Position numbers and translations under genes: made by a program
Assembly: GCF_029227855.1 (NCBI RefSeq)
Contig: NZ_CP074356.1
Direction: 5' to 3' (one strand)
DNA from: Escherichia coli
Lineage (GTDB): Bacteria > Pseudomonadota > Gammaproteobacteria > Enterobacterales > Enterobacteriaceae
DNA length: 64,000 nt
Notes under the pieces: model-generated
Databases searched by the model: none
Seen by the model: only the letters and a program-made list of their open reading frames with translations
Told to the model about the DNA's origin: nothing
Shown: positions 103 to 40,402 of the stretch, one piece after another
Layout: every line of letters starts with the position of its first letter
How positions within the stretch are numbered: the first letter of the stretch is position 1

Positions 103-111
103 GGGATGTTT

Positions 112-444
112 ATGACGAGCAAAGAAACCTTTACCCATTACCAGCCGCTGGGCAACAGTGACCCGGCTCATACCGCAACCGCGCCAGGCGGATTGAGTGC
201 GAAAGCGCCTGCAATGACCCCGCTGATGCTGGACACCTCCACCCGTAAGCTGGTTGCGTGGGATGGCACCACCGACGGTGCTGCTGTCGGCATTCTTGCT
301 GTTGCTGCTGACCAGACCAGCACCACGCTGACGTTCTACAAGTCCGGCACGTTCCGTTATGAGGATGTGCTCTGGCCGGAGGCTGCCAGCGACGAGACGA
401 AAAAACGGACCGCGTTTGCCGGAACGGCAATCAGCATCGTTTAA
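112..444 (+). CDS. D: Head decoration protein gpD
   Basis: [12 protein letters not shown]...FAGTAISIV is essentially the lambda gpD sequence (110 aa). The ATG at 112 is preferred over the ATG at 106 because lambda D starts MTSKE. Confidence 0.95.
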
Positions 445-499: not shown

Positions 500-775
500 A
501 TGTCGATGTACACAACCGCCCAGCTGCTGGCGGCAAATGAGCAGAAATTTAAGTTTGATCCGCTGTTTCTGCGTCTCTTTTTCCGTGAGAGCTATCCCTT
601 CACCACGGAGAAAGTCTATCTCTCACAAATTCCGGGGCTGGTAAACATGGCGCTGTACGTTTCGCCGATTGTTTCCGGTGAGGTTATCCGCTCCCGTGGC
701 GGCTCCACCTCTGAATTTACGCCGGGATATGTCAAGCCGAAGCACTTAGCATGGCTTTCTGAGGCTTTCGTGTAG
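500..775 (+). pseudogene. E: Major capsid protein gpE, 5' fragment (codons 1-82) running into island DNA
   Basis: MSMYTTAQLLAANEQKFKFDPLFL...SEFTPGYVKPKH matches lambda gpE residues 1-82. After base 745 the frame reads LAWLSEAFV and stops at 773-775. The rest of E resumes at 11872. Confidence 0.93.
735..744 (+). repeat. Left copy of the 10-bp direct repeat AGCCGAAGCA (attL core)
   Basis: Identical 10-mer at 11864-11873. Both copies lie on the E codons for K-P-K-H. Confidence 0.8.
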
Positions 776-872
776 CTGCTGGTTTTTACACTTAATCTTT
801 TGATAATAAAGAATAAGTTTATCTGGCGCTTTCACTGAATTTTCCTCGTTATCTGTGTGTTGCAATCATCTC

Positions 873-893
873 TGTATTGCAGCTTGTATTGCT
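873..893 (+). repeat. Tandem TGTATTGC motif (TGTATTGCAGCTTGTATTGCT), candidate arm-type Int binding site, left arm
   Basis: A near-identical 21-mer (TGTATTGCAGCATGTATTGCT) lies in the same orientation at 11768-11788. A degenerate third copy, TGTGTTGCAA, lies at 857-866. Confidence 0.5.
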
Positions 894-907
894 TTTTGGG
901 GCTAAAA

Positions 908-2143
908 ATGGCTGGCGAGAACAAACTGAGCGACAAAGCGCTTAAAGGATATCTGGGGAAACCCAGAGAAAAGCAGATCACCATTGCTGATGGAAAGGGG
1001 CTTTCTATTCGTGTGAGTACTAAAGGGGCTGTGAGCTTTGTTTTCTTCTACAGGTTAGCAGGTGGCCGGGCTGCTCCGGTCTGGCTAACGTTGGGTAAAT
1101 ATCCTGATATGTCACTCAAACAGGCAAGGGAAAAGCGCGACGAGTGCCGTGGTTGGTTGGCTGACAAACGTGATCCGCGTATCCAGATTAAGATTCAGGC
1201 TGAAGAACGCTTAAAGCCGGTCACAGTGGAGGATGCACTAAATTACTGGTATGAAAATTACTGTAAGGTGCGTCGTAAAACTCATGCTGTAACGCTTGGC
1301 AGATTTCGAAAGCATATCTTTCCCTATATCGGTCATTTGCCCGTAAATGACACTCACCTATATGAATAGCTGGACTGTTTTGACCGAATTAAACGTAATG
1401 CACCAGTTATGGCGGCGTATGTTTTTTCTGACACTAAATTAGCTCTTCGTTTTTGTCGGGTACGCCAGTACGCGACGTGTGATGCTTTAAAGGATTTGCG
1501 CATGAGTGATGTGGGGCAGATTGCAGGTAAGCGGGATCGGGTTCTGGATGAGGTCGAACTCGGCCAGCTCTGGAAGGCAATTTTTGTCGAGCCTGATTTA
1601 AAACTAATGTCTGAATACACGCGAAAAATGTTTGTGCTTTGTACAGTATTTGGATGTCGAATGAGTGAAGCCCGATTATCAGAATGGAGCGAATGGGATC
1701 TCGAAAGTTGGGTTTGGACTGTGCCAAAAGATCACTCAAAAACTGGTGTTGAAATCGTCAGACCAGTACCTGAAATTCTACGACAGTGGGTAACGGATGT
1801 TCACGAAGAGACAAAACATACTGGTTATGTGCTGGGAAGTCTGCGAATTAGAGAAAGCGTAAGCAAGATTGGGGGGAAAATCGGTAAACGTTTGGGCCAT
1901 GAAAAACAATGGTCACTACACGACCTTAGAAGAACGCTATCTACTCATCTAAGTGATCTCGGTGTTGAATTTTATGTAGTAGAACAACTGTTAGGCCATG
2001 CGCTACCTGGCGTGGCAGGTGTTTACAACCGGAGTAAGTTTATGGCTAAAAAACTGGATGCTCTGGAACTCTGGACTACATATCTCAATAGCATCGCAGC
2101 TGCTGATTCAAAAGTGACAATCCTCAAACAAAAGGCTGGTTAG
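908..2143 (+). pseudogene. int: P4-family tyrosine integrase interrupted by one in-frame amber codon
   Basis: ORFs 857-1369 and 1409-2143 are in the same frame, separated only by TAG at 1367-1369 (context LYE*LDCFDRI; TGG/Trp would fit). The C-terminal part has HDLRRT, LLGH and GVYNRS catalytic-type motifs. The ATG at 908 gives MAGENKLSDKALK. Confidence 0.85.
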
Positions 2144-2144
2144 C

Positions 2145-2375
2145 ATGAAAAAAATGGCAATTGTTGATAAAAAGGGTCTGGAGTACATTCCTAACATTGA
2201 CCGAATGATCCGTGAGAAAGAATGTCGGGAGCTAACTACTCTTGCGAACAGCACACGCTGGAAGCTGGAGAAGGAAGGAAAATTTCCTAAGCGGATCAAG
2301 ATTGGTTCCACTGCTGTTGCATATCGTCTTTCAGAAGTGCAGGCATGGATTCGAGGTGAGTGGGAAACAACTTAA
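2145..2375 (+). CDS. alpA: AlpA-family HTH regulator/excisionase-like protein
   Basis: 76 aa. IREKECRELTTLANSTRWKLEKEGKFPKRIKIGSTAVAYRLSEVQAWI fits the AlpA pattern (G-FP-P-K-G ... W-x-x-EV-x-W). The ATG lies 1 nt after the int stop. Confidence 0.8.
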   Translation: MKKMAIVDKKGLEYIPNIDRMIREKECRELTTLANSTRWKLEKEGKFPKRIKIGSTAVAYRLSEVQAWIRGEWETT

Positions 2376-2382
2376 CTATTAG

Positions 2383-3213
2383 GTGGGCATTGTGGCTATA
2401 TTTCATTATACAGATCTTTTTGGTTTGAAAGGTATATTAGACTCTAATTCTTTATGGGCTACAAACATATATTTCTTAAATGATAAAGAGGAGTCTAACC
2501 ATGGATGTGAATGCTTTCGAAATACAATTAAAATAGTTGATGACAATATCATTCCAAAAGATAAGAAAACTATTTTGCTCAAGTCTCTTGACATGTATGA
2601 GAAAGGGAGGTTACAAAAAGAAAAAGGGATTGATAAACATGTTTATAGCATCTCTTTTTGTAAGGAAAACGATAAGTTAAGTCAGTGGAGAGGTTACGGA
2701 AATAAACAGGGTGTTTGCATTGAGTTTGATGCGGATGAACTTGTGAGCTTTTCTCAAAATATTTATTTAAATTGTGTTGCACATGATGTTATATATTCAA
2801 ATAATAACGATATTACTAAGATGAGTAAGGAGTTGGGAGAGTTTTTTTCTTGTAATGGTATTAATATTAAAGAAATGAATGATCATTTTGTAACAATGGT
2901 CTCTACGTATCAATTTATATCTAAATACATCCCATTTTTTAAACATCCTAGTTTTATCGAAGAGAATGAATTTAGATTGGTATTTACTCCGTGGATGCAA
3001 ATGCCAGATGTGCACTTCAGAATAAATAATAATGGGATCATCCCTTATATCATCATTGATAATAAAGATAATAGAAAGTTACCAATTAAAAGCATTACAA
3101 TTGGCCCGACAAACGATTATGATTTCATTGAGGCTGGTATAAAAATGTTCTTGGATTCAAGAGGATTTAGTTCTGTGGAAATTAAATCCTCATCAATTCC
3201 ATTCAGGGGGTAA
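2383..3213 (+). CDS. DUF2971-like protein (AT-rich cargo)
   Basis: 276 aa with a GTG start. Motifs FHYTD...GIL, FLNDKEE, SISFC...DKLSQWRGYG..GVCIEF and KHPSFIEENEFR resemble the DUF2971 signature. The gene is markedly AT-rich compared with its neighbours. Confidence 0.6.
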   Translation: MGIVAIFHYTDLFGLKGILDSNSLWATNIYFLNDKEESNHGCECFRNTIKIVDDNIIPKDKKTILLKSLDMYEKGRLQKEKGIDKHVYSISFCKENDKLSQWRGYGNKQGVCIEFDADELVSFSQNIYLNCVAHDVIYSNNNDITKMSKELGEFFSCNGINIKEMNDHFVTMVSTYQFISKYIPFFKHPSFIEENEFRLVFTPWMQMPDVHFRINNNGIIPYIIIDNKDNRKLPIKSITIGPTNDYDFIEAGIKMFLDSRGFSSVEIKSSSIPFRG

Positions 3214-3258
3214 GGATTAACACTTTTAATCTATGATATTATAAAAATGGTGGATAAA

Positions 3259-3278
3259 GGCGACCAGAATTGGTCGCC
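3259..3278. terminator. Hairpin between the convergent cargo genes
   Basis: GGCGACCA (3259-3266) pairs with TGGTCGCC (3271-3278). Confidence 0.4.
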
Positions 3279-3344
3279 AATGTGAGTATATAGTTAGCCT
3301 TAATCAGAATACGAGGTTATCGCCTGATAGGCAATGTGAACAGT

Positions 3345-3701
3345 TCAATATTTAGGTGGTTCAACAAGAGCGTTTATCATTGCTCTCAAATTATCGCGAA
3401 CACTTATCCAAGTCTGTTCTGCTCGTTCTAACTCATCAGTGTACAACTTTAATGTTTTATCTATGCCATATGTGGCTATTAAATTTATAGCTTCTTGTAA
3501 TTTTTCAGGATTATTCCTTCTTGGGGGAGTGAATATACCACGGATTTTTCCGGTAATTAAAGCTTTACGGTGTCTACATAGAATACCTTTACTTCCTGCT
3601 GGACAATTACAAGTCATGATTAGCGAGCCAGAATCGTTTGATACAGTGACTATGTATACATCCAAACTACTGCTACTTGTTGCGAAGAATTCGTATTTCA
3701 T
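3345..3701 (-). CDS. Small SWIM-type zinc-finger protein
   Basis: 118 aa. CNCPAGSKGILCRHRKAL fits the CxC...CxH SWIM motif. Convergent with the DUF2971-like gene. Confidence 0.6.
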   Translation of the reverse strand: MKYEFFATSSSSLDVYIVTVSNDSGSLIMTCNCPAGSKGILCRHRKALITGKIRGIFTPPRRNNPEKLQEAINLIATYGIDKTLKLYTDELERAEQTWISVRDNLRAMINALVEPPKY

Positions 3702-3728
3702 GTGTTAGCTCCTTGACTTCAATTATTC

Positions 3729-3920
3729 TTATCCTTTTGGTTCAATACCGCGCCGTAGCAGCTCTTTGCGCCCTAATTCTTTAAGCCAGTTGGCTAGGCT
3801 TATGCCGTCGCTCTGCGCTTCTTTGTCGAATTGCTCTTTTAGCTCTGGAGAAATTCGCATTCTGAATTGTGGAGATTGCCCATCACCCTTAGGACTTTTA
3901 TCGCGTTTGATCGTTGACAA
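3729..3920 (-). CDS. Arc/Mnt-like ribbon-helix-helix repressor candidate
   Basis: SPQFRMRISPELKEQFDKEAQSDGISLANWLKE resembles the Arc N-terminus (PQFNLRWPREVLDLV...). I prefer the TTG start at 3920, which is preceded by AGGTGG. The ATG at 4043 in the ORF track would add a low-complexity extension that overlaps the divergent leader. Confidence 0.55.
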   Translation of the reverse strand: MSTIKRDKSPKGDGQSPQFRMRISPELKEQFDKEAQSDGISLANWLKELGRKELLRRGIEPKG

Positions 3921-3965
3921 GTGACCACCTATTGAATTAGCCTTTTCATTGTTAGGTGACCACCT
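3921..3965. promoter_or_regulatory. Two direct copies of GTGACCACCT, candidate operators in the divergent control region
   Basis: Exact 10-mers at 3921-3930 and 3956-3965. The second copy lies within the palindrome AGGTGACCACCT. The first abuts the repressor start. Confidence 0.4.
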
Positions 3966-3991
3966 TAACACGGGGGCACTTAAAAAAGCAA

Positions 3992-4022
3992 AGCCCGAAG
4001 GTGCTGGGAACACCAACGGGCT
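3992..4022 (+). ncRNA. Structured hairpin in the leader of the early operon (possible C4/CI-like immunity RNA element)
   Basis: AGCCCG-AA-GGTG-CTGGGAA-CACC-AA-CGGGCT forms a two-tier stem with a symmetric AA/AA internal loop. It lies about 40 nt upstream of an icd-like gene, the position of c4 in P1 immI. Confidence 0.3.
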
Positions 4023-4059
4023 TCTAACCACCAACGATAGCAACAGTATCGAGGTAGCT

Positions 4060-4263
4060 ATGAGAAATCATACCACACACCCGCAAGGGCGGGACCCGCA
4101 CAACCTGAATAAATACATCTGGCGTTTTATCGCCTTGAGTACGGCACAACCGCGCATGATTACCATCGAGGCCATCAGCGAACAGGAAGCCCGCCAGCAA
4201 TCCCCAACTGGCTGCGTGATGGTATTCGCCGCCCGTATTCGTCAGGAGGTGTGCCGTGCTTAA
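4060..4263 (+). CDS. Icd-like (cell division inhibitor-like) small protein
   Basis: 67 aa. KYIWRFIALSTAQPRMITIEAISEQEARQQSP...FAARIRQEV matches my memory of Icd-like proteins from P4-type satellites. GAGGT lies 5 nt upstream of the ATG at 4060. Confidence 0.55.
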   Translation: MRNHTTHPQGRDPHNLNKYIWRFIALSTAQPRMITIEAISEQEARQQSPTGCVMVFAARIRQEVCRA

Positions 4264-4441
4264 AACCTTCCGTGTATTTGCCCGAGCTGTTAACCCACTG
4301 GGCCACACAATTGGTATCACTCAGAACGTGAAGGCTGTTAATGTTCAGACGGCTATTGCTGCGGTGAGAAGCGAATCATCAGAATATGGCTTATCACAAG
4401 TCATTATTTCAGCAGTGTATGAATTAAAAGAGGTGCATTAA
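4256..4441 (+). CDS. Hypothetical protein
   Basis: 61 aa with a GTG start overlapping the upstream stop. Part of a tightly packed same-strand operon. Confidence 0.45.
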   Translation: MLKTFRVFARAVNPLGHTIGITQNVKAVNVQTAIAAVRSESSEYGLSQVIISAVYELKEVH

Positions 4442-4632
4442 TGCAGGAAATCACATTACACGAAGCCGCTGAACGTGCGCACCAGACAGAAATTATTTGC
4501 CGCCTTCTTGAGGTATACCCGAACAAAATTACAGATGCTGATATATCCGCGCTGGCGAGCCTACTGGCGCGCCTTTCGGGAAGTGTCGCTAGTTTCCTGA
4601 TTGAGGAAGAAAGTAAGCTGGTGGGGGATTAA
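4441..4632 (+). CDS. Hypothetical protein
   Basis: 63 aa. TAATG overlap with the upstream gene suggests translational coupling. Confidence 0.5.
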   Translation: MQEITLHEAAERAHQTEIICRLLEVYPNKITDADISALASLLARLSGSVASFLIEEESKLVGD

Positions 4633-4854
4633 ATGAATACAGAACGGGAAGTCTTTTTTAAATTGTTAGCATGTGCAGAAAGTTCATTAACTTTAAATAA
4701 TTCAGCAAAAGCAATATTAAATATGTGGCTTGATTGCATAAATGACAATGAAGATGCAAATATTGCTTATGGCCTGTTGTCACTTATTGATGAATCAGCA
4801 GAAAAACTCAATGACGCAATAAATAGTGCCCTGCTATCAAATAAGTCGAGTTAA
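4633..4854 (+). CDS. Hypothetical protein (AT-rich)
   Basis: 73 aa. The ATG directly follows the upstream TAA. Confidence 0.5.
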   Translation: MNTEREVFFKLLACAESSLTLNNSAKAILNMWLDCINDNEDANIAYGLLSLIDESAEKLNDAINSALLSNKSS

Positions 4855-4871
4855 GTCGAGGAATAAATAAT

Positions 4872-5171
4872 ATGGAAATGAAAAATTCTGGCTTTATTGC
4901 CAGCGGCCCCGCTCGGCCTGAATTTATGAACGGCGATATTTACCGCGATAAATACGGCGGCACGGTAACGATTAAAGGCGTGGCAGAACGGCGCATCACT
5001 TACCGCCGTGAGGGGTATAGCTATGACTGCGTGATGCCTGTTTATCAGTTCCGGCGTGATTTTTCCCTGGTATATGCCGCACCCCGCAGTAAGCCCATCA
5101 GCAGGGAAAAAGCGCGGGGAAACATCCAGAAAATGAAAAGCATGATTAACGCATTCAGGGGCAAAAAATGA
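4872..5171 (+). CDS. Hypothetical protein
   Basis: 99 aa. ATGA overlap with the primase-helicase gene. Confidence 0.55.
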   Translation: MEMKNSGFIASGPARPEFMNGDIYRDKYGGTVTIKGVAERRITYRREGYSYDCVMPVYQFRRDFSLVYAAPRSKPISREKARGNIQKMKSMINAFRGKK

Positions 5172-6919
5172 AACTGGCACCGAACTTAAAAAAACAGCCA
5201 CGCGACAGACTGACAGAGGTAATCATCTTTGCAGGTAGTGATGCGTGGAGCCATGCGAAAGAGTGGCGGGAATGGGCGGGTAAACATATTGCCGCCGACG
5301 ATGTGCCGCCTGTCGTGCTGGCTGATGAGCAACTGAAAAATATCACCGATTACCGGATCATTGATGAAGATCGTCAGTGTGTGCGTGTTTACCGCGCAGG
5401 ACATATCACAGAGCACAGCATGACGCAGATTGTTACGTTACTGGCTGTGGCTGGAGTGAAGACCGTACACGAATACGCGGGGATTACTGACACCAGCCCA
5501 GTGGATTTATCCGAGCAGTTGCCGCGACTCAAAGAGGAATGCGAGCGTGGGGAAAGTCTGGTGCTTAATCTTCCGACGAAGCAAAAGGCGCAACTTTCAC
5601 AGATGGCAGACAGTGAACGTGCACAACTACTTGCCGATCGCTTTGATGGTGTGTGTGTTCATGCAGAAAGTGAAATCGTCCACGTATGGCGCGGCGGGGT
5701 ATGGTGTCCGGTCAGCACAATGGAGCTGAGCCGCGAAATGGTGGCGATCTATTCAGAGCACAGGGCCACGTTCAGCAAACGTGTAATCAATAACGCCGTG
5801 GAAGCGTTAAAAGTTATTGCCGACCCCATGGGGGAGCCGTCCGGTGATTTGCTACCGTTCACTAATGGTGTGCTTAACCTGAAAACGGGGGAATTTTCTC
5901 CGCACTCGCCGGAGCACTGGAGCACCACGCACAATGGCATTGAGTACACGCCACCAGTAGCAGGGGAAAACATCCGCGATAATGCGCCAAATTTCCATAA
6001 ATGGCTTGAACATGCTGCAAGAAAAGACCCGCGCAAGATGATGCGTATATGTGCCGCGTTATACATGATTATGGCGAACCGCTACGACTGGCAGATGTTC
6101 ATTGAGGCCACCGGAGACGGGGGAAGCGGTAAGAGTACATTTACCCATATTGCCACCCTGCTTGCTGGCAAACAGAACACCGTAAGCGCGGAGATGACAT
6201 CACTCGATGATGCAGGAGGGCGCGCGCAGGTTGTCGGGAGTCGTCTTATCGTCCTTGCCGATCAGCCGAAATATACGGGGGAAGGCACGGGCATCAAGAA
6301 AATCACGGGAGGCGATCCCGTTGAAATTAACCCGAAATATGAGAAGCGATTCACGACGATAATAAGGGCGGTGGTACTGGCAACCAATAACGACCCGATG
6401 ATCTTTACCGAACGGGCCGGAGGTGTGTCACGCCGTCGGGTGATTTTCCGGTTCGACAACATTGTAAGGGAGGACGAAAAAGACAAGGAATTACCGGAAA
6501 AGATAGCGGCAGAAATCCCCGTAATTATCCGCCGCTTGCTGGCTAATTTTGCTGACCCTGAAAAGGCACGGGCTTTATTACTGGAACAGCGTGACGGTGA
6601 TGAAGCTCTGGCAATAAAGCAGCAAACGGATCCGGTTGTTGAGCTTTGCGCGGCGCTGGAGTTTCTGGAGGAAGCTCGTGGGCTAATGATGGGCGGTGGT
6701 GGTGACACCGTGAAGTACACGACCAGAAACAGCCTTTACCGTGTCTATATGGCCTTCATGGCATACACAGGAAAGGGGAAATGTTTGAGCGTGAATGAGT
6801 TCGGAAAGGCTATGAGGTCAGCGGCGAAAGTTTACGGATATGAATATATTACGCGAAAAGTTAAGGGAGTCACGCAGACCAACGCAACGACTACTGATGA
6901 TTGCGATGCGTTTTTATAA
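5168..6919 (+). CDS. P4/D5-family primase-helicase (replication initiator, pri-rep type)
   Basis: 583 aa. FHKWLEHAARKD...YDWQMFIEATGDGGSGKSTF fits the phage/plasmid primase P4-family C-terminal NTPase with a Walker A motif. An iteron field lies immediately downstream. Confidence 0.8.
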   Translation: MKLAPNLKKQPRDRLTEVIIFAGSDAWSHAKEWREWAGKHIAADDVPPVVLADEQLKNITDYRIIDEDRQCVRVYRAGHITEHSMTQIVTLLAVAGVKTVHEYAGITDTSPVDLSEQLPRLKEECERGESLVLNLPTKQKAQLSQMADSERAQLLADRFDGVCVHAESEIVHVWRGGVWCPVSTMELSREMVAIYSEHRATFSKRVINNAVEALKVIADPMGEPSGDLLPFTNGVLNLKTGEFSPHSPEHWSTTHNGIEYTPPVAGENIRDNAPNFHKWLEHAARKDPRKMMRICAALYMIMANRYDWQMFIEATGDGGSGKSTFTHIATLLAGKQNTVSAEMTSLDDAGGRAQVVGSRLIVLADQPKYTGEGTGIKKITGGDPVEINPKYEKRFTTIIRAVVLATNNDPMIFTERAGGVSRRRVIFRFDNIVREDEKDKELPEKIAAEIPVIIRRLLANFADPEKARALLLEQRDGDEALAIKQQTDPVVELCAALEFLEEARGLMMGGGGDTVKYTTRNSLYRVYMAFMAYTGKGKCLSVNEFGKAMRSAAKVYGYEYITRKVKGVTQTNATTTDDCDAFL

Positions 6920-6932
6920 AAAATGGCAATGG

Positions 6933-7161
6933 TTATCTACCTTGTCTACCTGACTGAAAGAAAATACTTTTATTTCAATGTATTAATGCAGGTAGATAAC
7001 TATTTTTCACTGTCTACCTGTTATCTACCTTATCTACCCATTTTTGTAGACAGGTAAGGAGACGGGTAGAGATGAGGTAGACAGCTATTTGGGGCTGTCT
7101 ACCTCCCTGAAACCCGCGCCATTACTGGCCTGATAACTAATCAGGTAGACAAGGTAGACAA
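6933..7161. repeat. Iteron field, candidate satellite origin of replication
   Basis: At least 10 copies of GGTAGA(C/T)A or its complement, in both orientations: 6933-6941, 6942-6950, 6991-6999, 7011-7018, 7021-7029, 7030-7038, 7077-7085, 7095-7103, 7144-7152, 7153-7161. AT-rich spacers lie around 6955-6990. Confidence 0.75.
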
Positions 7162-7208
7162 GGTGGTGGTGCACAAAAAACTTTTTAAACGAGGGGGTAA
7201 AAATAAAA

Positions 7209-7466
7209 ATGCACACTTCAGGAAAACTGAACAAACATATAAAGCCACATTACCGCGCCCTTGATATGGCTGAACACTGGCTAAGGGTGGCGATTAAGGC
7301 AATAGACCGCAACGCCGGGGAAGGATACGCGAAAGCACATCCCGAACTGATAAGCGCATTCATGACAACGGCGGCTGCAAACTTTGCCACGCTGACCGAA
7401 CGGGAGATTGCTGAAGCGGAGGAAGTGACAACAATCAATATTAAGTCCGGAGAGCAGGCAGCATGA
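7209..7466 (+). CDS. Hypothetical protein
   Basis: 85 aa. ATGA overlap with the SSB gene. Confidence 0.5.
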   Translation: MHTSGKLNKHIKPHYRALDMAEHWLRVAIKAIDRNAGEGYAKAHPELISAFMTTAAANFATLTEREIAEAEEVTTINIKSGEQAA

Positions 7467-7912
7467 CGGCGCAAATATCAGTTTACGGGCGGTTGGTGGA
7501 CGACCCGCAGACAAAACAGACCAGCAAGGGCACCCCCATGACGCTGGCGCGTATGGCGGTATCACTGCCCTGCAGTCAGTCGGATGACGGTCTGGCGACG
7601 TTGTGGTTATCTGTCCTGGCGTTTGGCAGACAAGCCGACGCGCTGGCAAAGCATCACAAAGGCGAACTCCTGAGCGTGGCGGGTAACATGCAGATGAGCC
7701 AGTGGACTGGACAGAACGGCGAAACGCGGCAGGGCTGGCAGGTTATCGCAGACAGCGTAATCAGTGCGCGATCGGTGCGACCGGGCGGCAAAAAAGGCCA
7801 ACAGGGGCAGGCTACTGACGCACTGAACAGAGCAAAACAACAGGCAGATCAGCAAGGAAGCCAGCCACCAGAGGGAGATAATGAGCAATGGGGAGATGAT
7901 ATCCCGTTTTAA
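7463..7912 (+). CDS. ssb: Single-stranded DNA-binding protein (SSB family)
   Basis: 149 aa. OB-fold-type N-terminus (VYGRLVDDPQTKQT...WLSVLAFGRQAD...KGELLSVAGNMQMSQW), a Gln/Gly-rich linker, and the canonical acidic tip DDIPF. Confidence 0.8.
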   Translation: MTAQISVYGRLVDDPQTKQTSKGTPMTLARMAVSLPCSQSDDGLATLWLSVLAFGRQADALAKHHKGELLSVAGNMQMSQWTGQNGETRQGWQVIADSVISARSVRPGGKKGQQGQATDALNRAKQQADQQGSQPPEGDNEQWGDDIPF

Positions 7913-7923
7913 ATATTGCCAAT

Positions 7924-7954
7924 AAAAAAAGCCGGAAAAAATAAATTTTCCGGC
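7924..7954 (-). terminator. Hairpin with its T-run only on the minus strand, between the replication and capsid modules
   Basis: GCCGGAAAA (7931-7939) pairs with TTTTCCGGC (7946-7954). A7 at 7924-7930 gives a U-tract only for leftward transcription. Confidence 0.4.
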
Positions 7955-8128
7955 ATGCTACATAAATCCCGACCAAAGGGAGTGAAGATATTAACACTAA
8001 TTGTCCGCACTGAAGTTGTCACACCAAAACTTTATACAACATTGCACTCGGTTGCATGTGTTCGCATGACAAATATCGGTGATAGCATATATCCACAATT
8101 ATTTTTAATGAATGCAAAGAGGATGCGT

Positions 8129-9169
8129 ATGGTTGATTTATATTCGCCTACTCAGCTTGTACAGGTAGTTAATGCTGTAGATGTACAAAAACAACTAAAT
8201 GCGTTGTTTACCAGTTTGTTTTTTACTCGCTCGGTAATGTTTGAATCGCGCGATATTATTCTTGATACAATCGACGATCCAAATATCCCAATTGCAGCGT
8301 TTTGTTCTCCTATGGTGGGTAGTAAAGTTTCACGTGACGAAGGGTACGAATCAAAAACAATTCGTCCAGGCTATATGAAGCCGAAAAGCAGCATTGATCC
8401 AAATAAGTTAGCTGTGCGCCCTGCTGGTGTGTCACCTGAGCAATACAATGCTTTTGGGGCGCGTAATATTAAAGTTAAACAGGCGATTGTAAATCAGGCT
8501 AAAGCTATTCGTGCACGTATTGAATGGCTTGCTGTTCAGGCAATCACAACGGGGAAAAATATCATTGAGGGCGATGGTATTGAACGTTATGAGCTGGACT
8601 GGAATATAAAACCACAAAATATCATCACTCAGTCTGGCGGTACTGAGTGGTCAGGTAAGGATAAAGAAACTTTTGATCCAAATGATGATATTGAGAGCTA
8701 CGCAGAATTTAGTGAGGGCGTCACTAATATCATCATTATGGGTGGTAATGTATGGAAGAAATACCGTTCATTCAGAGCGATAAAAGAGGCTTTGGATACC
8801 CGTCGTGGTTCTAATTCCGAACTGGAAACGGCCCTTAAAGACCTTGGTGATTCGGTGAGTTTTAAAGGGTATATGGGCGATGTTGCGATTGTTGTTTACA
8901 GCGGGCGTTATACCGACGAGGACGGAACAGAAAAACATTTCCTTGATCCTGATTTGATGGTGCTTGGCAATACGGCTCTTCAGGGGATTGTCGCCTATGG
9001 CGGTATTCAGGATCCGGAGCTAATCCGAATGGGGCTGACTAAAGCCGAACTTGCACCGAAAAACTATATTGTGCCTGGTGATCCGGCTATTGAATATGTG
9101 CAGACACATTCAGCACCACAGCCAATACCGGCCCGCATCAATCGTTTTGTTACCGTTCGCATTGGCTAA
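8129..9169 (+). CDS. Satellite-encoded major capsid protein, gpE (lambda E) family
   Basis: 346 aa. The C-terminal half aligns by eye with lambda gpE: ITQSGGTEWSGKDKETFDPNDDIESYA, LDTRRGSNSELETALKDLG, YMGDVAIVVYSGRY, MVLGNTA, PGDPA. The N-terminal half is much more diverged. The ATG at 8129 has AAGAGGA 6 nt upstream. The longer ORF from 7916 has no homology support. Confidence 0.88.
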   Translation: MVDLYSPTQLVQVVNAVDVQKQLNALFTSLFFTRSVMFESRDIILDTIDDPNIPIAAFCSPMVGSKVSRDEGYESKTIRPGYMKPKSSIDPNKLAVRPAGVSPEQYNAFGARNIKVKQAIVNQAKAIRARIEWLAVQAITTGKNIIEGDGIERYELDWNIKPQNIITQSGGTEWSGKDKETFDPNDDIESYAEFSEGVTNIIIMGGNVWKKYRSFRAIKEALDTRRGSNSELETALKDLGDSVSFKGYMGDVAIVVYSGRYTDEDGTEKHFLDPDLMVLGNTALQGIVAYGGIQDPELIRMGLTKAELAPKNYIVPGDPAIEYVQTHSAPQPIPARINRFVTVRIG

Positions 9170-9178
9170 GGGGGAGCA

Positions 9179-9520
9179 ATGGCTACTCATTACACTGAAC
9201 TCATGGCTGGCACTGAAGCACTGGTGACTACGCTGGGGATATTTTCAGCTAATAAAGGGGTAATTCCTGCATTTACGCCACTGATGCAGGAAGATGCAAC
9301 AGGTGCACTGGTGGTATGGGATGGTTCGAGCGTAGGTAAAGCGGTTTATGTTTCCGCTGTACAAATCGACACCGCGAAAAAAACACAGGCTCAGGTCTAT
9401 AAGACAGGTGTCTTAAATGTTGATGCTCTGAACTGGCCTGAGTCTGTTAAAGAACTGTCAGTAAAGGTTGCAGCGTTTGTTGGCTCAGGTATTTCTGTTC
9501 AGCCGCTGGCTCGTGTGTAA
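9179..9520 (+). CDS. Satellite-encoded head decoration protein, gpD family
   Basis: 113 aa. Shares TPLM, LVxWDG, YKxG, LxWPE and AFxGxGIS with lambda gpD in the same order. Confidence 0.75.
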   Translation: MATHYTELMAGTEALVTTLGIFSANKGVIPAFTPLMQEDATGALVVWDGSSVGKAVYVSAVQIDTAKKTQAQVYKTGVLNVDALNWPESVKELSVKVAAFVGSGISVQPLARV

Positions 9521-9531
9521 AGGGGGATACA

Positions 9532-9915
9532 ATGCAGAATGATTACAATGACCTTAAGCCAATTGCCGAAATGATGTACCCGAATCAAGCTGTAGAGGAA
9601 TTAAAAGCTATCGCTGACAAAATGTGTTTAAGCGAGCGCCTTGTTGATATGAATCAGGTGATGGAAATTACAACCCTGAGTCGTCGTACACTGCTAAACC
9701 TTGAGGCTAGTGGAGAGTTCCCGGAGCGTGTGCAGGTTACGGAAGGGCGTAAGGCCTGGTATTTAAGTGAAGTGATCGACTGGATAAATAATATTCCTCG
9801 CGCTTCTGAATATTGCCGCGTACCTGTCCCAAAAAAGCCAGATGCGGCGCTATGCCTCAAGATTGAGCGTGTACGCCGCAATGCACGGGATGGTCGCTAT
9901 AAGCTGATTGGTTGA
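9532..9915 (+). CDS. AlpA/MerR-like winged-HTH protein immediately upstream of cos
   Basis: 127 aa. MNQVMEITTLSRRTLLNLEASGEFPERVQVTEGRKAWYLSEVIDWI fits the AlpA pattern. It is the last gene before the cos site. Confidence 0.65.
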   Translation: MQNDYNDLKPIAEMMYPNQAVEELKAIADKMCLSERLVDMNQVMEITTLSRRTLLNLEASGEFPERVQVTEGRKAWYLSEVIDWINNIPRASEYCRVPVPKKPDAALCLKIERVRRNARDGRYKLIG

Positions 9916-9922
9916 TGAAATT

Positions 9923-9948
9923 AGGACCCGCTCTGGCTGGCGGGTCCT
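9923..9948 (+). terminator. Hairpin after the capsid module
   Basis: AGGACCCGC (9923-9931) pairs with GCGGGTCCT (9940-9948), followed by TTCC (a weak T-run). Confidence 0.45.
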
Positions 9949-9954
9949 TTCCGG

Positions 9955-10140
9955 CGATCCAGAACGTTACGGGGCGTCAGGCGCGCAGTTTTTCGCTATT
10001 TGTGAAAATTTTCCTGTTTAAGGCGTTTCCGTTCTTCTTCGCCGTAACTTAATGTTTTTATTAAAAACACCCCCTAAAAAGAAAGGAAACGACAGGTGCT
10101 AAAAACAGGCTTTTTGGCCTCTGTCGTTTCCTTTCTCTGG
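9955..10140 (+). other. cos: Lambda-type cos site (cosN plus cosB R3-I1-R2-R1) with no adjacent terminase genes
   Basis: CGTTACG|GGGCGTCAGGCG|CGCAGTTTTTCGCTATTTGTGAAAATTTTCCTGTTTAAGGCGTTTCCGTTCTTCTTCG...GAAAGGAAACGACAGGTGCT...GGCTTTTTGGCCTCTGTCGTTTCCTTTCTCTG is collinear with my memory of the first ~180 bp of lambda. The R-site repeats CGTTTCC lie at about 10023-10034, 10081-10095 (inverted) and 10121-10135. The predicted 12-nt end at 9972-9983 matches lambda GGGCGGCGACCT at 7 of 12 positions. Confidence 0.85.
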
Positions 10141-10479
10141 TTTTGTTGCCATCCGTCGCGGTCTATCACCAGAAAAAATCTTATCCCTGAGTTGAATCAG
10201 GCCCTATTCAGAAGCGGCCAATAACGCGCCGCTAGCTTCACTTCATAGTTATGGCCTACTTCTGCGCCATTGCAATTGCTTTATGCGCCTTGATGGTGGA
10301 ATATAGAGCAAGCAGTTTGCGAATAACAAAGTTTCATATGTTTTTTGCTGTGTGGCTAGACAACTTTACAGCAGAGTTTTGTGTCAGTTCTTTATGTGTG
10401 CAAGCAAGCTTGAGGGGGAATTACTTCTGGCTGTATCTTTGCTTAAGAACAGCAATAATTTAATCATAAGGAAATGTAT

Positions 10480-10506
10480 ATAAGCCTGATTAAATTTCAG
10501 GCTTAT
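10480..10506 (-). terminator. Hairpin just downstream of the TIR gene
   Basis: ATAAGCCTGA (10480-10489) pairs with TCAGGCTTAT (10497-10506), 8 nt past the stop of the minus-strand gene. Confidence 0.5.
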
Positions 10507-10513
10507 TGAAATG

Positions 10514-11656
10514 TTAACTCCTTATTAGAGAGTAAATTCCATCCTCTTTAAGGAAGTCTATTACTTCAAAGAATGAGATAAAGAATTCCCAAGAACCAAA
10601 AGCATATGCATGAATTTCGTAAGGTGCAAAATGGAATCTAAATCCATCACTATTTATTGTGAACGAGTCTAAGTTACTATCCATGATACCCGTTGCAAAC
10701 GTACTAATGTCGTCCTCACTTGGTTTTTCACCAGTTTTCTCCCAAAATTCACGAGCTGATTCAGAGATTATTTTTTGTTTTATCTTATTAATCGCTTCTT
10801 GCTCTTTCCCTTCGGTAAATACATCCCATAAACTAAATTTGTATGCGTAGTCATCCTTGGTTATTACGAAATTACTAGTTTCAAAATGACTGTTAGGGTG
10901 TGCTGCTCCCGCACCATACCAATGTACGGAATGAAGGATGCTCATGACATTTTCGTTACAGTATGAGATGTTATAACTTTCATTATAGGAACTAGTGTAA
11001 GTGTGTTTATATTCTTCATCCCAATATGGTGTTCCTGGCCATAGTGATGTGCGTTCAGAAAAAATATGTAAAGCCGCTTTTCCTGAAAAGTAATCACTAA
11101 TGAGTTTTGCTGATTTCGGTAATGTATGGCTTTCAATTCTTGGATATGCTATTTCAATTTCATGCCCTGGGATCTTGTTATATTCTTCCTTGAAAACCTC
11201 GCTGCTAAAGTTAAATGGCCCATAAGTGATACCTTGAGATATTTCAAGTTTTTGTTGCGATGCTGCTAATCTTAAAGATCTAGATAAAATGTCCCAACCA
11301 TCATTTCTCTTAAAATCAATGAATTGGAGCTTGCTTGATATGTAGGCGGGTACTTCGCAATCATCAATAAGTAATGGTATCACGAACACATCATCTGGTT
11401 TGTAATACTTTAGTTTATCAATGGCGTCATTTATTTCGCGGCGAATATAACCATTTTTCTGAGTGCTCACTTTGCTAAGGATAAGGATTATCAAGTTTGA
11501 ATTAGCGAAGTTTTTTTGGATTTCATAATCCCAGTTTACGCCAGCGGGTATATCTTTTACATCCATCCAAGGGGAATATCCTCCACTTTTTAGCCTTTCA
11601 TAGATTTCTTCAGTTATCGTTTCATCTTCTTTTGCATGAGCAAGAAAAATTTTCAT
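10514..11656 (-). CDS. TIR-domain protein fused to a DUF4163/DUF3298 (RsiV-like) C-terminal domain
   Basis: 380 aa with no signal peptide or TM segment visible. The N-terminus (MKIFLAHAKEDE...GYSPWMDVKDIPAGVNWDYEI...SNLIILILSKVSTQKNGYIRREINDAI) fits the TIR_2 pattern, including the conserved Glu position. The C-terminus has IEIAYPRI... and HWYGAGAAHPNSHFETSNF...FSLWDVF, resembling the DUF4163 and DUF3298 motifs. AT-rich. Confidence 0.7.
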   Translation of the reverse strand: MKIFLAHAKEDETITEEIYERLKSGGYSPWMDVKDIPAGVNWDYEIQKNFANSNLIILILSKVSTQKNGYIRREINDAIDKLKYYKPDDVFVIPLLIDDCEVPAYISSKLQFIDFKRNDGWDILSRSLRLAASQQKLEISQGITYGPFNFSSEVFKEEYNKIPGHEIEIAYPRIESHTLPKSAKLISDYFSGKAALHIFSERTSLWPGTPYWDEEYKHTYTSSYNESYNISYCNENVMSILHSVHWYGAGAAHPNSHFETSNFVITKDDYAYKFSLWDVFTEGKEQEAINKIKQKIISESAREFWEKTGEKPSEDDISTFATGIMDSNLDSFTINSDGFRFHFAPYEIHAYAFGSWEFFISFFEVIDFLKEDGIYSLIRS

Positions 11657-11767
11657 TGAATATTCCTTTATAATTTAACTAATTAAGTGAAGGAGGCTTT
11701 ACTTGGCTGTGTTAGAAAAAATTCGGTTTGTTTTTTGTACGATGCCAAGAAGGCTTTTCCCTAACCA

Positions 11768-11788
11768 TGTATTGCAGCATGTATTGCT
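11768..11788 (+). repeat. Tandem TGTATTGC motif (TGTATTGCAGCATGTATTGCT), candidate arm-type Int site, right arm
   Basis: Matches 873-893 at 20 of 21 positions, in the same orientation. Confidence 0.5.
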
Positions 11789-11863
11789 ACGTAATTCTGC
11801 ACCCTCTCATTTATAAAATAAATCTCTGTTAAATCAAGTATCTTTTTTCTATTTGACTCATGT

Positions 11864-11873
11864 AGCCGAAGCA
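11864..11873 (+). repeat. Right copy of the 10-bp direct repeat AGCCGAAGCA (attR core)
   Basis: Identical to 735-744. Followed by TGAGGTGAATCCGCAG, the continuation of lambda E (H-E-V-N-P-Q). Confidence 0.8.
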
Positions 11874-12699
11874 TGAGGTGAATCCGCAGATGACCCTGCG
11901 TCGCCTGCCGGATGAAGATCCGCAGAATCTGGCGGACCCGGCTTACCGCCGCCGTCGCATCATTATGCAGAACATGCGTGACGAAGAGCTGGCCATTGCC
12001 CAGGTCGAAGAGATGCAGGCAGTTTCTGCCGTGCTTAAGGGCAAATACACCATGACCGGTGAAGCCTTCGATCCGGTTGAGGTGGATATGGGCCGCAGTG
12101 AGGCGAATAACATCACGCAGTCCGGCGGCACGGAGTGGAGCAAGCGTGACAAGTCCACGTATGACCCGACCGACGATATCGAAGCCTACGCGCTGAACGC
12201 CAGCGGAGTGGTGAATATCATCGTGTTTGATCCGAAAGGCTGGGCGCTGTTCCGTTCCTTCAAAGCCGTCAAGGAGAAGCTGGATACTCGTCGCGGCTCT
12301 CATTCCGAGCTGGAGACAGCGGTGAAAGACCTGGGCAAAGCGGTGTCCTACAAGGGGATGTATGGCGATGTGGCCATCGTCGTGTATTCCGGACAGTACG
12401 TGGAAAACGGCGTCAAAAAGAACTTCCTGCCGGACAACACGATGGTGCTGGGGAACACTCAGGCACGCGGTCTGCGCACCTATGGCTGCATTCAGGATGC
12501 GGACGCACAGCGCGAAGGCATTAACTCCTCTGCCCGTTACCCGAAAAACTGGGTGACCACCGGCGATCCGGCGCGTGAGTTCACCATGATTCAGTCAGCA
12601 CCGCTGATGCTGCTGGCTGACCCTGATGAGTTCGTGTCCGTACAACTGGCGCAATCGTGGCCCTTCGGGGCCATTTTCTCTCTGTGGAGGAGTCCATGA
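11872..12699 (+). pseudogene. E: Major capsid protein gpE, 3' fragment (codons 82-341), with loss of the normal stop
   Basis: HEVNPQMTLRRLPDEDPQNLADPAYRRRR...DPDEFVSVQLA matches lambda gpE 82-341. The expected TAA is CAA (12652-12654), so the frame runs 15 more codons (QSWPFGAIFSLWRSP) to TGA at 12697-12699. Confidence 0.93.
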
Positions 12700-38896: not shown

Positions 38897-40090
38897 TTAG
38901 AACTGGTAGACTAAGCCCACAGCAACGATATCATCGGTAGCGATGCCGTTTGCTTTGTAGAAGTCGTCGTCGTTGTCCAGCAGGTTGATTTTGTAATCAA
39001 CGTAGGTGGACATGTTTTTGTTGAAGTAGTAAGTCGCACCAATATCAACGTATTTAACCAGATCTTTATTGGTGTAACGTGGGTCGCCGTTGCCGTCATG
39101 AGCCCAACCACCTAAATCCTTACCTTTAGATTGCAGGTAAGCGATGGACGGGCGTAGGCCGAAGTCGAACTGATACTGAGCAACAACTTCAAAGTTTTGG
39201 GTTTTGTTCGCAATACCACCTCTGTCAATGTCGTTATTGTCTTTTCCGCTGCCATATGCAGTCATATTACGTGTTTCTGCATACATTGCCGCTAAATAGA
39301 CATTATTCGCATCATATTTAGCACCGACTGTCCATGCTTCAGCTGTTTCACCACCAGCATATTTATTCGAGCGTTGCTCACCTAAACCAGTAGCACGTTG
39401 GTTATCAGTACGGTCAGAGTTTGAATATGCAGCCCCGAGGCTTAACCCGAAGTCAAAGTCATAGGAAGTGGACATACCGAAACCGTCACCATTTTCTTTA
39501 GACAGTTTACGATTATTACCATTACCAGAACCTTCTTGATCCCAAAGCCCACCCGATCCTTCATTATTACCCTGATATTGCAGAGCAAAGTTCAGGCCAT
39601 CGACCTGACCAAAGAAGCCATTGTTACGGTAGGTTGCAACACCATTAGCACGACCGTTCATGAAGTTGTCGGCACCAGCATAGGTATCGCCACCAAATTC
39701 TGGCAGCATATCGGTCCATGCTTCGATGTCATATACGACACCGTAGTTACGACCATAGTCGAAAGTACCATTCTGACCAAAGCCTAAACCTGCAAATGCC
39801 AGACGCGTTGCGGTATTACCTTTGTCGCTTTCAGGACCGTTTGCGCCAATGTTAAATTCCCACTGACCATAACCAGTGAATTGGTCAGCGATCTGAGTTT
39901 CACCTTTGAAACCGATACGGGCATATGACATGTCGCCATCGCTGCCAGCATCATCAGAGAAGTAGTGCAGGCCCGCTACTTTTCCGTACAAATCCAGTTT
40001 ATTACCATCTTTATTATAGACTTCAGCCGCATTTGCTGCGCCAGCAACTAATAACGCCGGGACCAGCATTGCCAGAACTTTTCTTTTCAT
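38897..40090 (-). CDS. yedS: OmpC/OmpF-family general porin (intact yedS allele)
   Basis: 397 aa from the ATG at 40090. [38 protein letters not shown]...VGLVYQF. It sits at the yedS position between hchA and yedR. Confidence 0.88.
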
Positions 40091-40402
40091 TATGTATTCC
40101 CTTGTGATTATAATCTTCATGAATATATCAATAAGTGCCGTTATCCAAAAAAAAAGCACATTTGGATACTATTCTATGAAGTTCATTTTATTTTAAAGAT
40201 TACATGTAACAAATGTATTTAAAAGATTTCAAAATGTTTCTAATTTATTTAATATAATTCAGAATTATGAATTCTAAATATAAATATTCATGAAAATTAT
40301 AAATGTATATCAATATGTTATGAGTTGAGTGGAAACATGGGGGGTATCAATGAGTGTTGCGCCAAACGGCTGGTGTGATCACGCGCACATTAATGAAGGC
40401 AT

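Follow-up and report, generated by a model that had tools for sequence, protein, structure and literature searches.

Helper-embedded PICIs (HE-PICIs) were described by Tommasini, Mageeney and Williams in 2023 (NAR Genom Bioinform, PMC10111431). Eco567.11capE of E. coli NRG857c is an 11-kb PICI that disrupts the lambda-E-like capsid gene of a prophage and carries a capsid gene of its own; it has a 10-bp identity block, and its site is named E:Phage_cap_E:80 (PMC10111431). The same study lists 201 instances at this site and 290 at 13 other late-gene sites. For NRG857c only, mitomycin C was shown to be followed by precise excision of the composite, its replication and then precise excision of the satellite, which restores the capsid gene; virions were not obtained for the type element 11capE (PMC10111431). 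A doubled motif, tgTGTATTGCantgTGTATTGCa, flanks the attP centre at 81 ± 2 bp on the upstream side and 132 ± 2 bp on the downstream side, and the supplement gives agccgaagca, aacccaagca, agcccaagca, aagca and AGCCGAA as the identity blocks of the site group (PMC10111431). The attP carries no replacement fragment of the target gene, and the islands of the sister integrases, at the 13 other late-gene sites, lack a corresponding gene (PMC10111431). Figure 1A of that paper sets the att region beside its counterpart in the capsid gene that the island carries, and self-integration is there judged unlikely.

The window analysed here (64,000 nucleotides of the E. coli contig NZ_CP074356.1) starts among the late genes of a lambda-like prophage whose lambda-E-type capsid gene is split by an island of ~11.1 kb (~745-11863). 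The split falls right after the codons for PGYVKPKH, that is, after codon 82, with head and tail genes on either side (Table 1). The direct repeat at the island ends is the 10-mer AGCCGAAGCA, and joining 500-744 to the sequence from 11874 onward gives an uninterrupted capsid protein. The reading frame of the 5' capsid fragment continues into unrelated island DNA as far as a stop at 773-775. In the island, int, alpA and the primase gene share the strand of the split gene. Its order of modules as read from Pfam matches and coordinates (int-alpA, variable zone, primase/replication, late zone) fits, at 11.1 kb, the 10-20 kb layout of Gram-negative PICIs. The upstream arm motif ends ~81 bp before the core centre and the downstream one starts ~133 bp after it.

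Table 1. Features of the island and of the flanking helper prophage genes (positions are those of the window)
Feature	Position	Strand	Basis
Helper head-decoration gene (lambda D type), directly upstream of the split capsid gene	106..444	+	ORF list; same position in homologous locus L001 annotated 'head decoration protein'
Helper major capsid gene (lambda E type), 5' fragment, codons 1-82, ending PGYVKPKH	500..744	+	L001: partial major capsid protein
attL copy of the 10-bp identity block AGCCGAAGCA	735..744	+	Listed as E_Phage_cap_E_80 identity block in the PMC10111431 supplement
Doubled arm motif TGTATTGCAGCTTGTATTGC, ~132 bp downstream of attP centre	873..892	+	Motif and spacing as in PMC10111431
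Tyrosine integrase (Arm-DNA-bind_3, SAM-like and Phage_integrase domains), TAG-broken	908..2143	+	Pfam; intact 411-aa homologue annotated in L001
AlpA-family regulator / excisionase candidate	2145..2375	+	Pfam Phage_AlpA, E = 3e-15
DUF2971 protein, variable zone	2383..3213	+	Pfam
SWIM zinc-finger protein, variable zone	3345..3701	-	Pfam; L001 annotation
Primase/helicase, D5_N / DUF5906 type, replication zone	5168..6919	+	Pfam
Single-stranded DNA-binding protein	7463..7912	+	Pfam SSB
Satellite's own major capsid gene, Phage_cap_E family, 346 aa	8129..9169	+	Pfam E = 1e-41; BLASTP 42% identity to helper gpE, E = 6e-86
Flagged 13-mer AAGCCGAAAAGCA, Lys-Pro-Lys-Ser codons and first base of the next Ser codon	8378..8390	+	Codons homologous to helper codons 79-82
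Satellite head-decoration (lambda D-like) gene	9179..9520	+	Pfam HDPD, E = 4.5e-15
Helix-turn-helix regulator	9532..9915	+	ORF; L001 homologue annotated helix-turn-helix transcriptional regulator
Lambda cos-like region (cosB-like and flanking sequence, diverged cosN)	~9950..10150	+	Sequence reading
TIR-DUF3298 cargo gene, candidate defence gene, adjoining attR	10514..11656	-	Pfam TIR_2 and DUF3298
Doubled arm motif TGTATTGCAGCATGTATTGC, ~81 bp upstream of attP centre	11768..11787	+	Motif and spacing as in PMC10111431
attR copy of the 10-bp identity block AGCCGAAGCA	11864..11873	+	
Helper capsid gene, 3' fragment, from third base of codon 82 on	11874..12699	+	Stop codon mutated

The cargo of the island varies, other islands of the group carrying different genes at the position of the TIR-DUF3298 gene. 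With PADLOC, the TIR-DUF3298 protein gave matches limited to the TIR domain of several defence families, and the cargo genes as a whole gave TIR-domain-level or weak matches only. No P4-like immunity RNA (C4, isrK) reached the gathering score when the island region was scanned with Rfam. The segment between the helix-turn-helix gene and the cargo gene appears lambda cos-like on comparison with the lambda cos sequence; the cosN 12-mer of lambda has no match in the island, and the helper's own cos falls outside the window. A cos-like segment is common to 11capE and its helper (PMC10111431).

The element in the window is another instance of the HE-PICI '11capE' type, at E:Phage_cap_E:80 and outside the type strain: its position in the capsid gene, its identity block AGCCGAAGCA and its doubled TGTATTGC motif with the published spacing are those of this site. 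By its domain architecture the integrase is a candidate member of the HE-PICI clade of P4-like tyrosine integrases, and islands at this site in other genomes have 99.5% identity to the attL-spanning DNA that covers it. With the Eco567.11capE group the window island shares its ~11-kb size, its co-oriented place in codon ~80 of a lambda-E-type capsid gene, the family of 10-bp blocks, the arm motif with its spacing and the gene order int, alpA, variable zone, primase, SSB, capsid, decoration, cos. It differs from the type element, which has the core aacccaagca and another right arm, in its core AGCCGAAGCA, its TIR-DUF3298 cargo, a nonsense codon in the integrase and a mutated helper capsid stop. 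The system, the site, the 10-bp block and the comparison with the own capsid gene were thus already known in 2023; what the present analysis documents is the anatomy of this copy, the homology of the two capsid genes and the natural variation of the junctions.

More distant relatives are the EcCICFT073-type PICIs (Fillol-Salom et al. 2018, 2019, as cited in PMC10111431), which resemble the window island in size class and layout, many of them with a lambda-E-like capsid gene, and have lambdoid cos phages as helpers. They sit in chromosomal genes, however, and meet their helpers only in trans, whereas the window island lies inside the helper's capsid gene. Satellite P4 shares the clade of P4-like tyrosine integrases (integrase tree, PMC10111431) and a primase-based replication module, but its tRNA-gene site, P2-type helper and Sid remodelling of capsid size have no counterpart here. 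As in 'regulated gene integrity' islands, the target gene is split, attP holds no replacement copy and only precise excision restores the gene; in the present case, however, the gene that is split is part of a second mobile element, and it is the satellite that benefits from the regulation.

Versions of the same element with an intact integrase occur at the same site in other E. coli genomes; WP_000896724.1 is one example of the intact protein. In the window copy, codon 1367-1369 of the integrase is an in-frame TAG, where all 41 of 41 related loci have TGG (Trp). The stop codon of the helper capsid gene (12652-12654), present in 154 of 154 related genes (153 TAA, 1 TGA), has become CAA, and its loss extends the reading frame by 15 codons, into the start of the next gene. 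The composite looks decayed, its helper capsid gene apparently staying split, and because of the nonsense codon in its integrase the island copy would probably not excise by itself, without another integrase. Beyond the tail genes lies a porin-like ORF (OmpC/NmpC type, 420 aa, 38897-40159, - strand); it was considered as icd, the prophage site of the type element, and rejected, the protein being porin-like. The chromosomal site of the prophage in the window is not obviously icd, unlike that of the type strain.

According to the original prediction, the satellite's own capsid gene carries a near-copy of the att core at the homologous K-P-K codons, differing from it by one inserted A. The strings themselves are where they were said to be: the 13-mer AAGCCGAAAAGCA has its sole match in the window within the satellite capsid gene, GGATATGTCAAGCCGAAGCA lies at 725-744, and PGYMKPKS of the satellite aligns without gaps to PGYVKPKH of the helper, the satellite capsid and the reconstituted helper gpE being 42-43% identical. 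The difference between them had been misread. Thirteen nucleotides against eleven amount to two As, and the codons align in frame without any indel (AAG CCG AAG CAT GAG in the helper, AAG CCG AAA AGC AGC in the satellite). Nor is the 11-mer that was taken for the att core repeated at the island ends, since with its leading A it occurs once in the window, where a second copy was sought and none found; the true repeat is the 10-mer. In register, the two genes share 8 identical nucleotides (AAGCCGAA), followed by 0 of 8 (own gene AGCCGAAAAGCAGC, gpE AGCCGAAGCATGAG). The eight are identical because P-G-Y-x-K-P-K is invariant in both capsid homologues, and the right-hand half of the site is absent from the own gene because the next two codons differ, Lys-His-Glu of the helper being Lys-Ser-Ser in the satellite (Ser-Ser for His-Glu). 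Set beside the attB variants of gpE, GTCAAGCCGAAGCATGAGGTG for type 1 and GTTAAGCCGAAACACGAATTT for type 2, the own-gene sequence reads ATGAAGCCGAAAAGCAGCATT.

As a bare string the 13-mer is not beyond chance. Within an edit distance of two from the 11-mer there are 58 distinct places in the window; the two capsid genes share 10 in-register runs of 8 nt or more, this one included, the longest measuring 10 nt; and the match of the best window spanning the att core is equalled or bettered by 13-20% of sliding windows (13, 20 or 30 nt). Its position at homologous codons is explained by common ancestry. The DNA resemblance between the helper site and the satellite site is not conserved among relatives. 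Eighty intact close gpE genes have AAGCCGAAGCA (53 genes), AAACCCAAGCA (25) or AAGCCCAAGCA (2), and satellite capsid genes have either AAGCCGAAAAGC or AAACCGAAAAGC, many of them the latter.

That the integration site lies in a motif conserved across the gpE family is borne out by the alignment. P75, G76, Y77, K79, P80 and K81 are invariant in the satellite capsid and in helper-type relatives as distant as 68% identity, and K-P-K-H is kept in phage-type gpE relatives down to ~42% identity (42-48%). The further proposal that many lambda-like phages could be targeted is likewise supported, by an intact close gpE gene in 3154 of 5426 complete E. coli genomes, by a gpE::integrase (attL) junction in 173 of the 5426, and by occupied sites with the core variants AGCCGAAGCA, AACCCAAGCA and AGCCCAAGCA. 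Occupied sites were also found in a gpE type of ~62% identity (L095, L098) and in Kosakonia and Cedecea, and the published supplement includes Salmonella instances (PMC10111431). Tabulating the 10-mer over the aligned gpE motif upheld the invariance of the protein motif but not that of its DNA: wobble positions vary among species representatives, and the exact 10-mer is present in only roughly a third of their capsid genes (our own tally, lambda contamination left out). That contamination consists of lambda capsid sequence, mostly 99-100% identical, in unrelated bacteria, among them Chromatium, Neobacillus, Pseudomonas and Enterococcus, where it lies on contigs that are short and of low coverage (loci L164-L179, L197, L199, L203, L208, L210, L212-L219 and others), and it almost certainly stems from lambda control DNA in the assemblies. 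Two protein clusters match gpE, P0096 (260 aa, 1605 members) and P0104 (254 aa, 2046 members). The length of gpE downstream of the insertion site (residues 82-341) is also 260 aa, and many members of both clusters may represent the attR-side part of genes into which this island family has inserted.

Comparing the two junctions of single islands gives some insight into the core. Where both could be read (37 islands), the core variant is the same at attL and attR in 28 and different in 9. As 9 of 37 islands are discordant and the published supplement holds blocks as short as AAGCA or AGCCGAA (PMC10111431), the exact 10-mer is not required for integration. Core positions 2 and 5 show the same variants in islands and in phages, which suggests that these positions are exchanged. 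At the ~62% gpE type the two junctions disagree at core position 8, G being retained in attL and A present in attR, so that they have no more than AGCCGAA in common; this attL was taken solely from the supplement of PMC10111431, the IMG/VR scan having returned no attL in this gpE type and the complete E. coli genomes no such junction. Loci L095 (7268-7300) and L098 (8916-8950) have the island family at the homologous codons of this gpE type (PKHEFNYQQAVER...). From these few natural variants we infer that AGCCGAA probably contains the point of strand exchange and that the reaction tolerates mismatches at positions 2 and 5. The own capsid gene contains AGCCGAA perfectly; if this is the overlap, exclusion of self-integration would rest entirely on the right-hand half-site. 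Linkage of core variants to flanking phage polymorphisms was also tried for placing the crossover and was dropped, there being little linkage in intact genes.

Satellites with a 99-100% identical capsid gene but with the att sequences of a different site were found at L083, L125, L129, L131, L133-L135, L138-L140 and L150. The site at L125 is codon ~305 of a lambda-type portal gene B, with attL reading ..GTGAAGGCGATTTATG.. and attR ..CATAAAGGCGATGTATGCC... With capsid genes so nearly identical in islands at other att sites, the late-zone genes are thus common to islands of different site specificities. The portal-site att sequence was sought in the window and is absent from it. At L137, a left arm of the portal-site type and a right arm of the capsid-site type stand 11 kb apart (arm motifs at 2875 and 14065); this locus may be chimeric or may stem from one prophage with two embedded satellites and a deletion between them.

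Why, then, does the own capsid gene resemble the core? Very probably the 13-mer is ordinary coding sequence of the HE-PICI capsid gene and its look-alike character a by-product of homology, not a second att site; the likeness is homology plus codon usage on an invariant K-P-K. An unrelated chance near-match would agree with the 58 places within two edits of the 11-mer, but it has next to nothing to recommend it, the 13-mer lying exactly at the aligned codons of a homologous gene, for which common descent is the better explanation. Hardly more credible is the suggestion, made in the original prediction, that attP arose from a fragment of a capsid gene and that the look-alike records this history. 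The tropism of the integrase clade for late genes, the capture of helper late genes by PICIs (PMC10111431) and an ATGT close to the core in both attP and gpE would suit such an origin. When 310 bp of reconstructed attP were aligned locally, however, the score was 11 against gpE (shuffle mean 12) and 15 against the satellite capsid (shuffle mean 13.9), and no similarity to either capsid gene beyond the core was found against shuffles. Moreover, attP lacks a replacement gene fragment and attL ends in unrelated codons, likewise in PMC10111431, while the sister integrases at 13 other late-gene sites have no corresponding gene in their islands. A capsid-gene origin of attP accordingly finds nothing outside the core to point to.

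Self-immunity by design, in which the own-gene sequence would have been selected to be unlike attB and so to spare the own capsid from insertion by the island or its siblings, deserves more attention and is nonetheless improbable. The own gene keeps AGCCGAA(A), a block sufficient as shared identity in secondary gpE targets, and loses every one of the next eight bases; Ser-Ser in place of His-Glu is a derived state, seen in the PICI-type capsid clade alone. Self-targeting would leave a recognizable signature, the island arm sequence CTTAGCATGGCTTTC joined to TATATGAARCCGAA. In IMG/VR, junctions of the island with a satellite-type left flank number 0 against 53 with a helper-type flank (both with uncertain denominators), and the 80 satellite capsid genes that were fetched and searched for interruption are all uninterrupted. 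These counts agree with the published statement (PMC10111431) that the own capsid gene is not a target. Yet 12 islands assigned to portal gene B by their att sequences also have K-P-K-S-S, as do PICIs with integrases of no more than 22-44% identity to that of the window island, and the sequence is therefore no specific adaptation of E-targeting islands against self-insertion. The residues on both sides of PGYxKPK have diverged as well, so that the change is not locally exceptional, and by our own calculation 0 of 8 matches would arise by chance with p ~0.1. The single-base difference that was suggested as possibly protective is a difference of two codons, shared with portal-targeting islands and with PICIs of unrelated integrases. 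Some selection at the Ser-Ser spot is conceivable, because Ser-Ser is derived and confined to the PICI clade and His is kept in phage-type relatives down to 42%; the replacement might then have been favoured for destroying the right-hand integrase half-site, making PICI capsids immune to E-targeting satellites, though we regard this too as unlikely. Self-immunity, if true, would illustrate on a small scale how a mobile element can adapt its cargo so as to escape its own integrase. The by-product of homology remains the preferred reading, against which no result speaks, and the 13-mer was not found to act as a functional att site, that is, as a recombination partner.

In the mechanism that we propose, the island's tyrosine integrase would recombine attP with an attB in the lambda-E-type capsid gene of a lambdoid prophage, at codons 79-82 (K-P-K-H). 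The attP would consist of the core AGCCGAAGCA between doubled TGTATTGC arm motifs, ~81 bp upstream and ~132 bp downstream, and late transcription of the helper may read into the island. Satellites seated in the capsid gene of their helper are an interesting case of parasite-within-parasite regulation, described in 2023. The refinements added here are that the exact 10-mer is dispensable, that strand exchange probably occurs in AGCCGAA, and that the difference in the own gene is a two-codon replacement common to PICIs that do not target the capsid gene.
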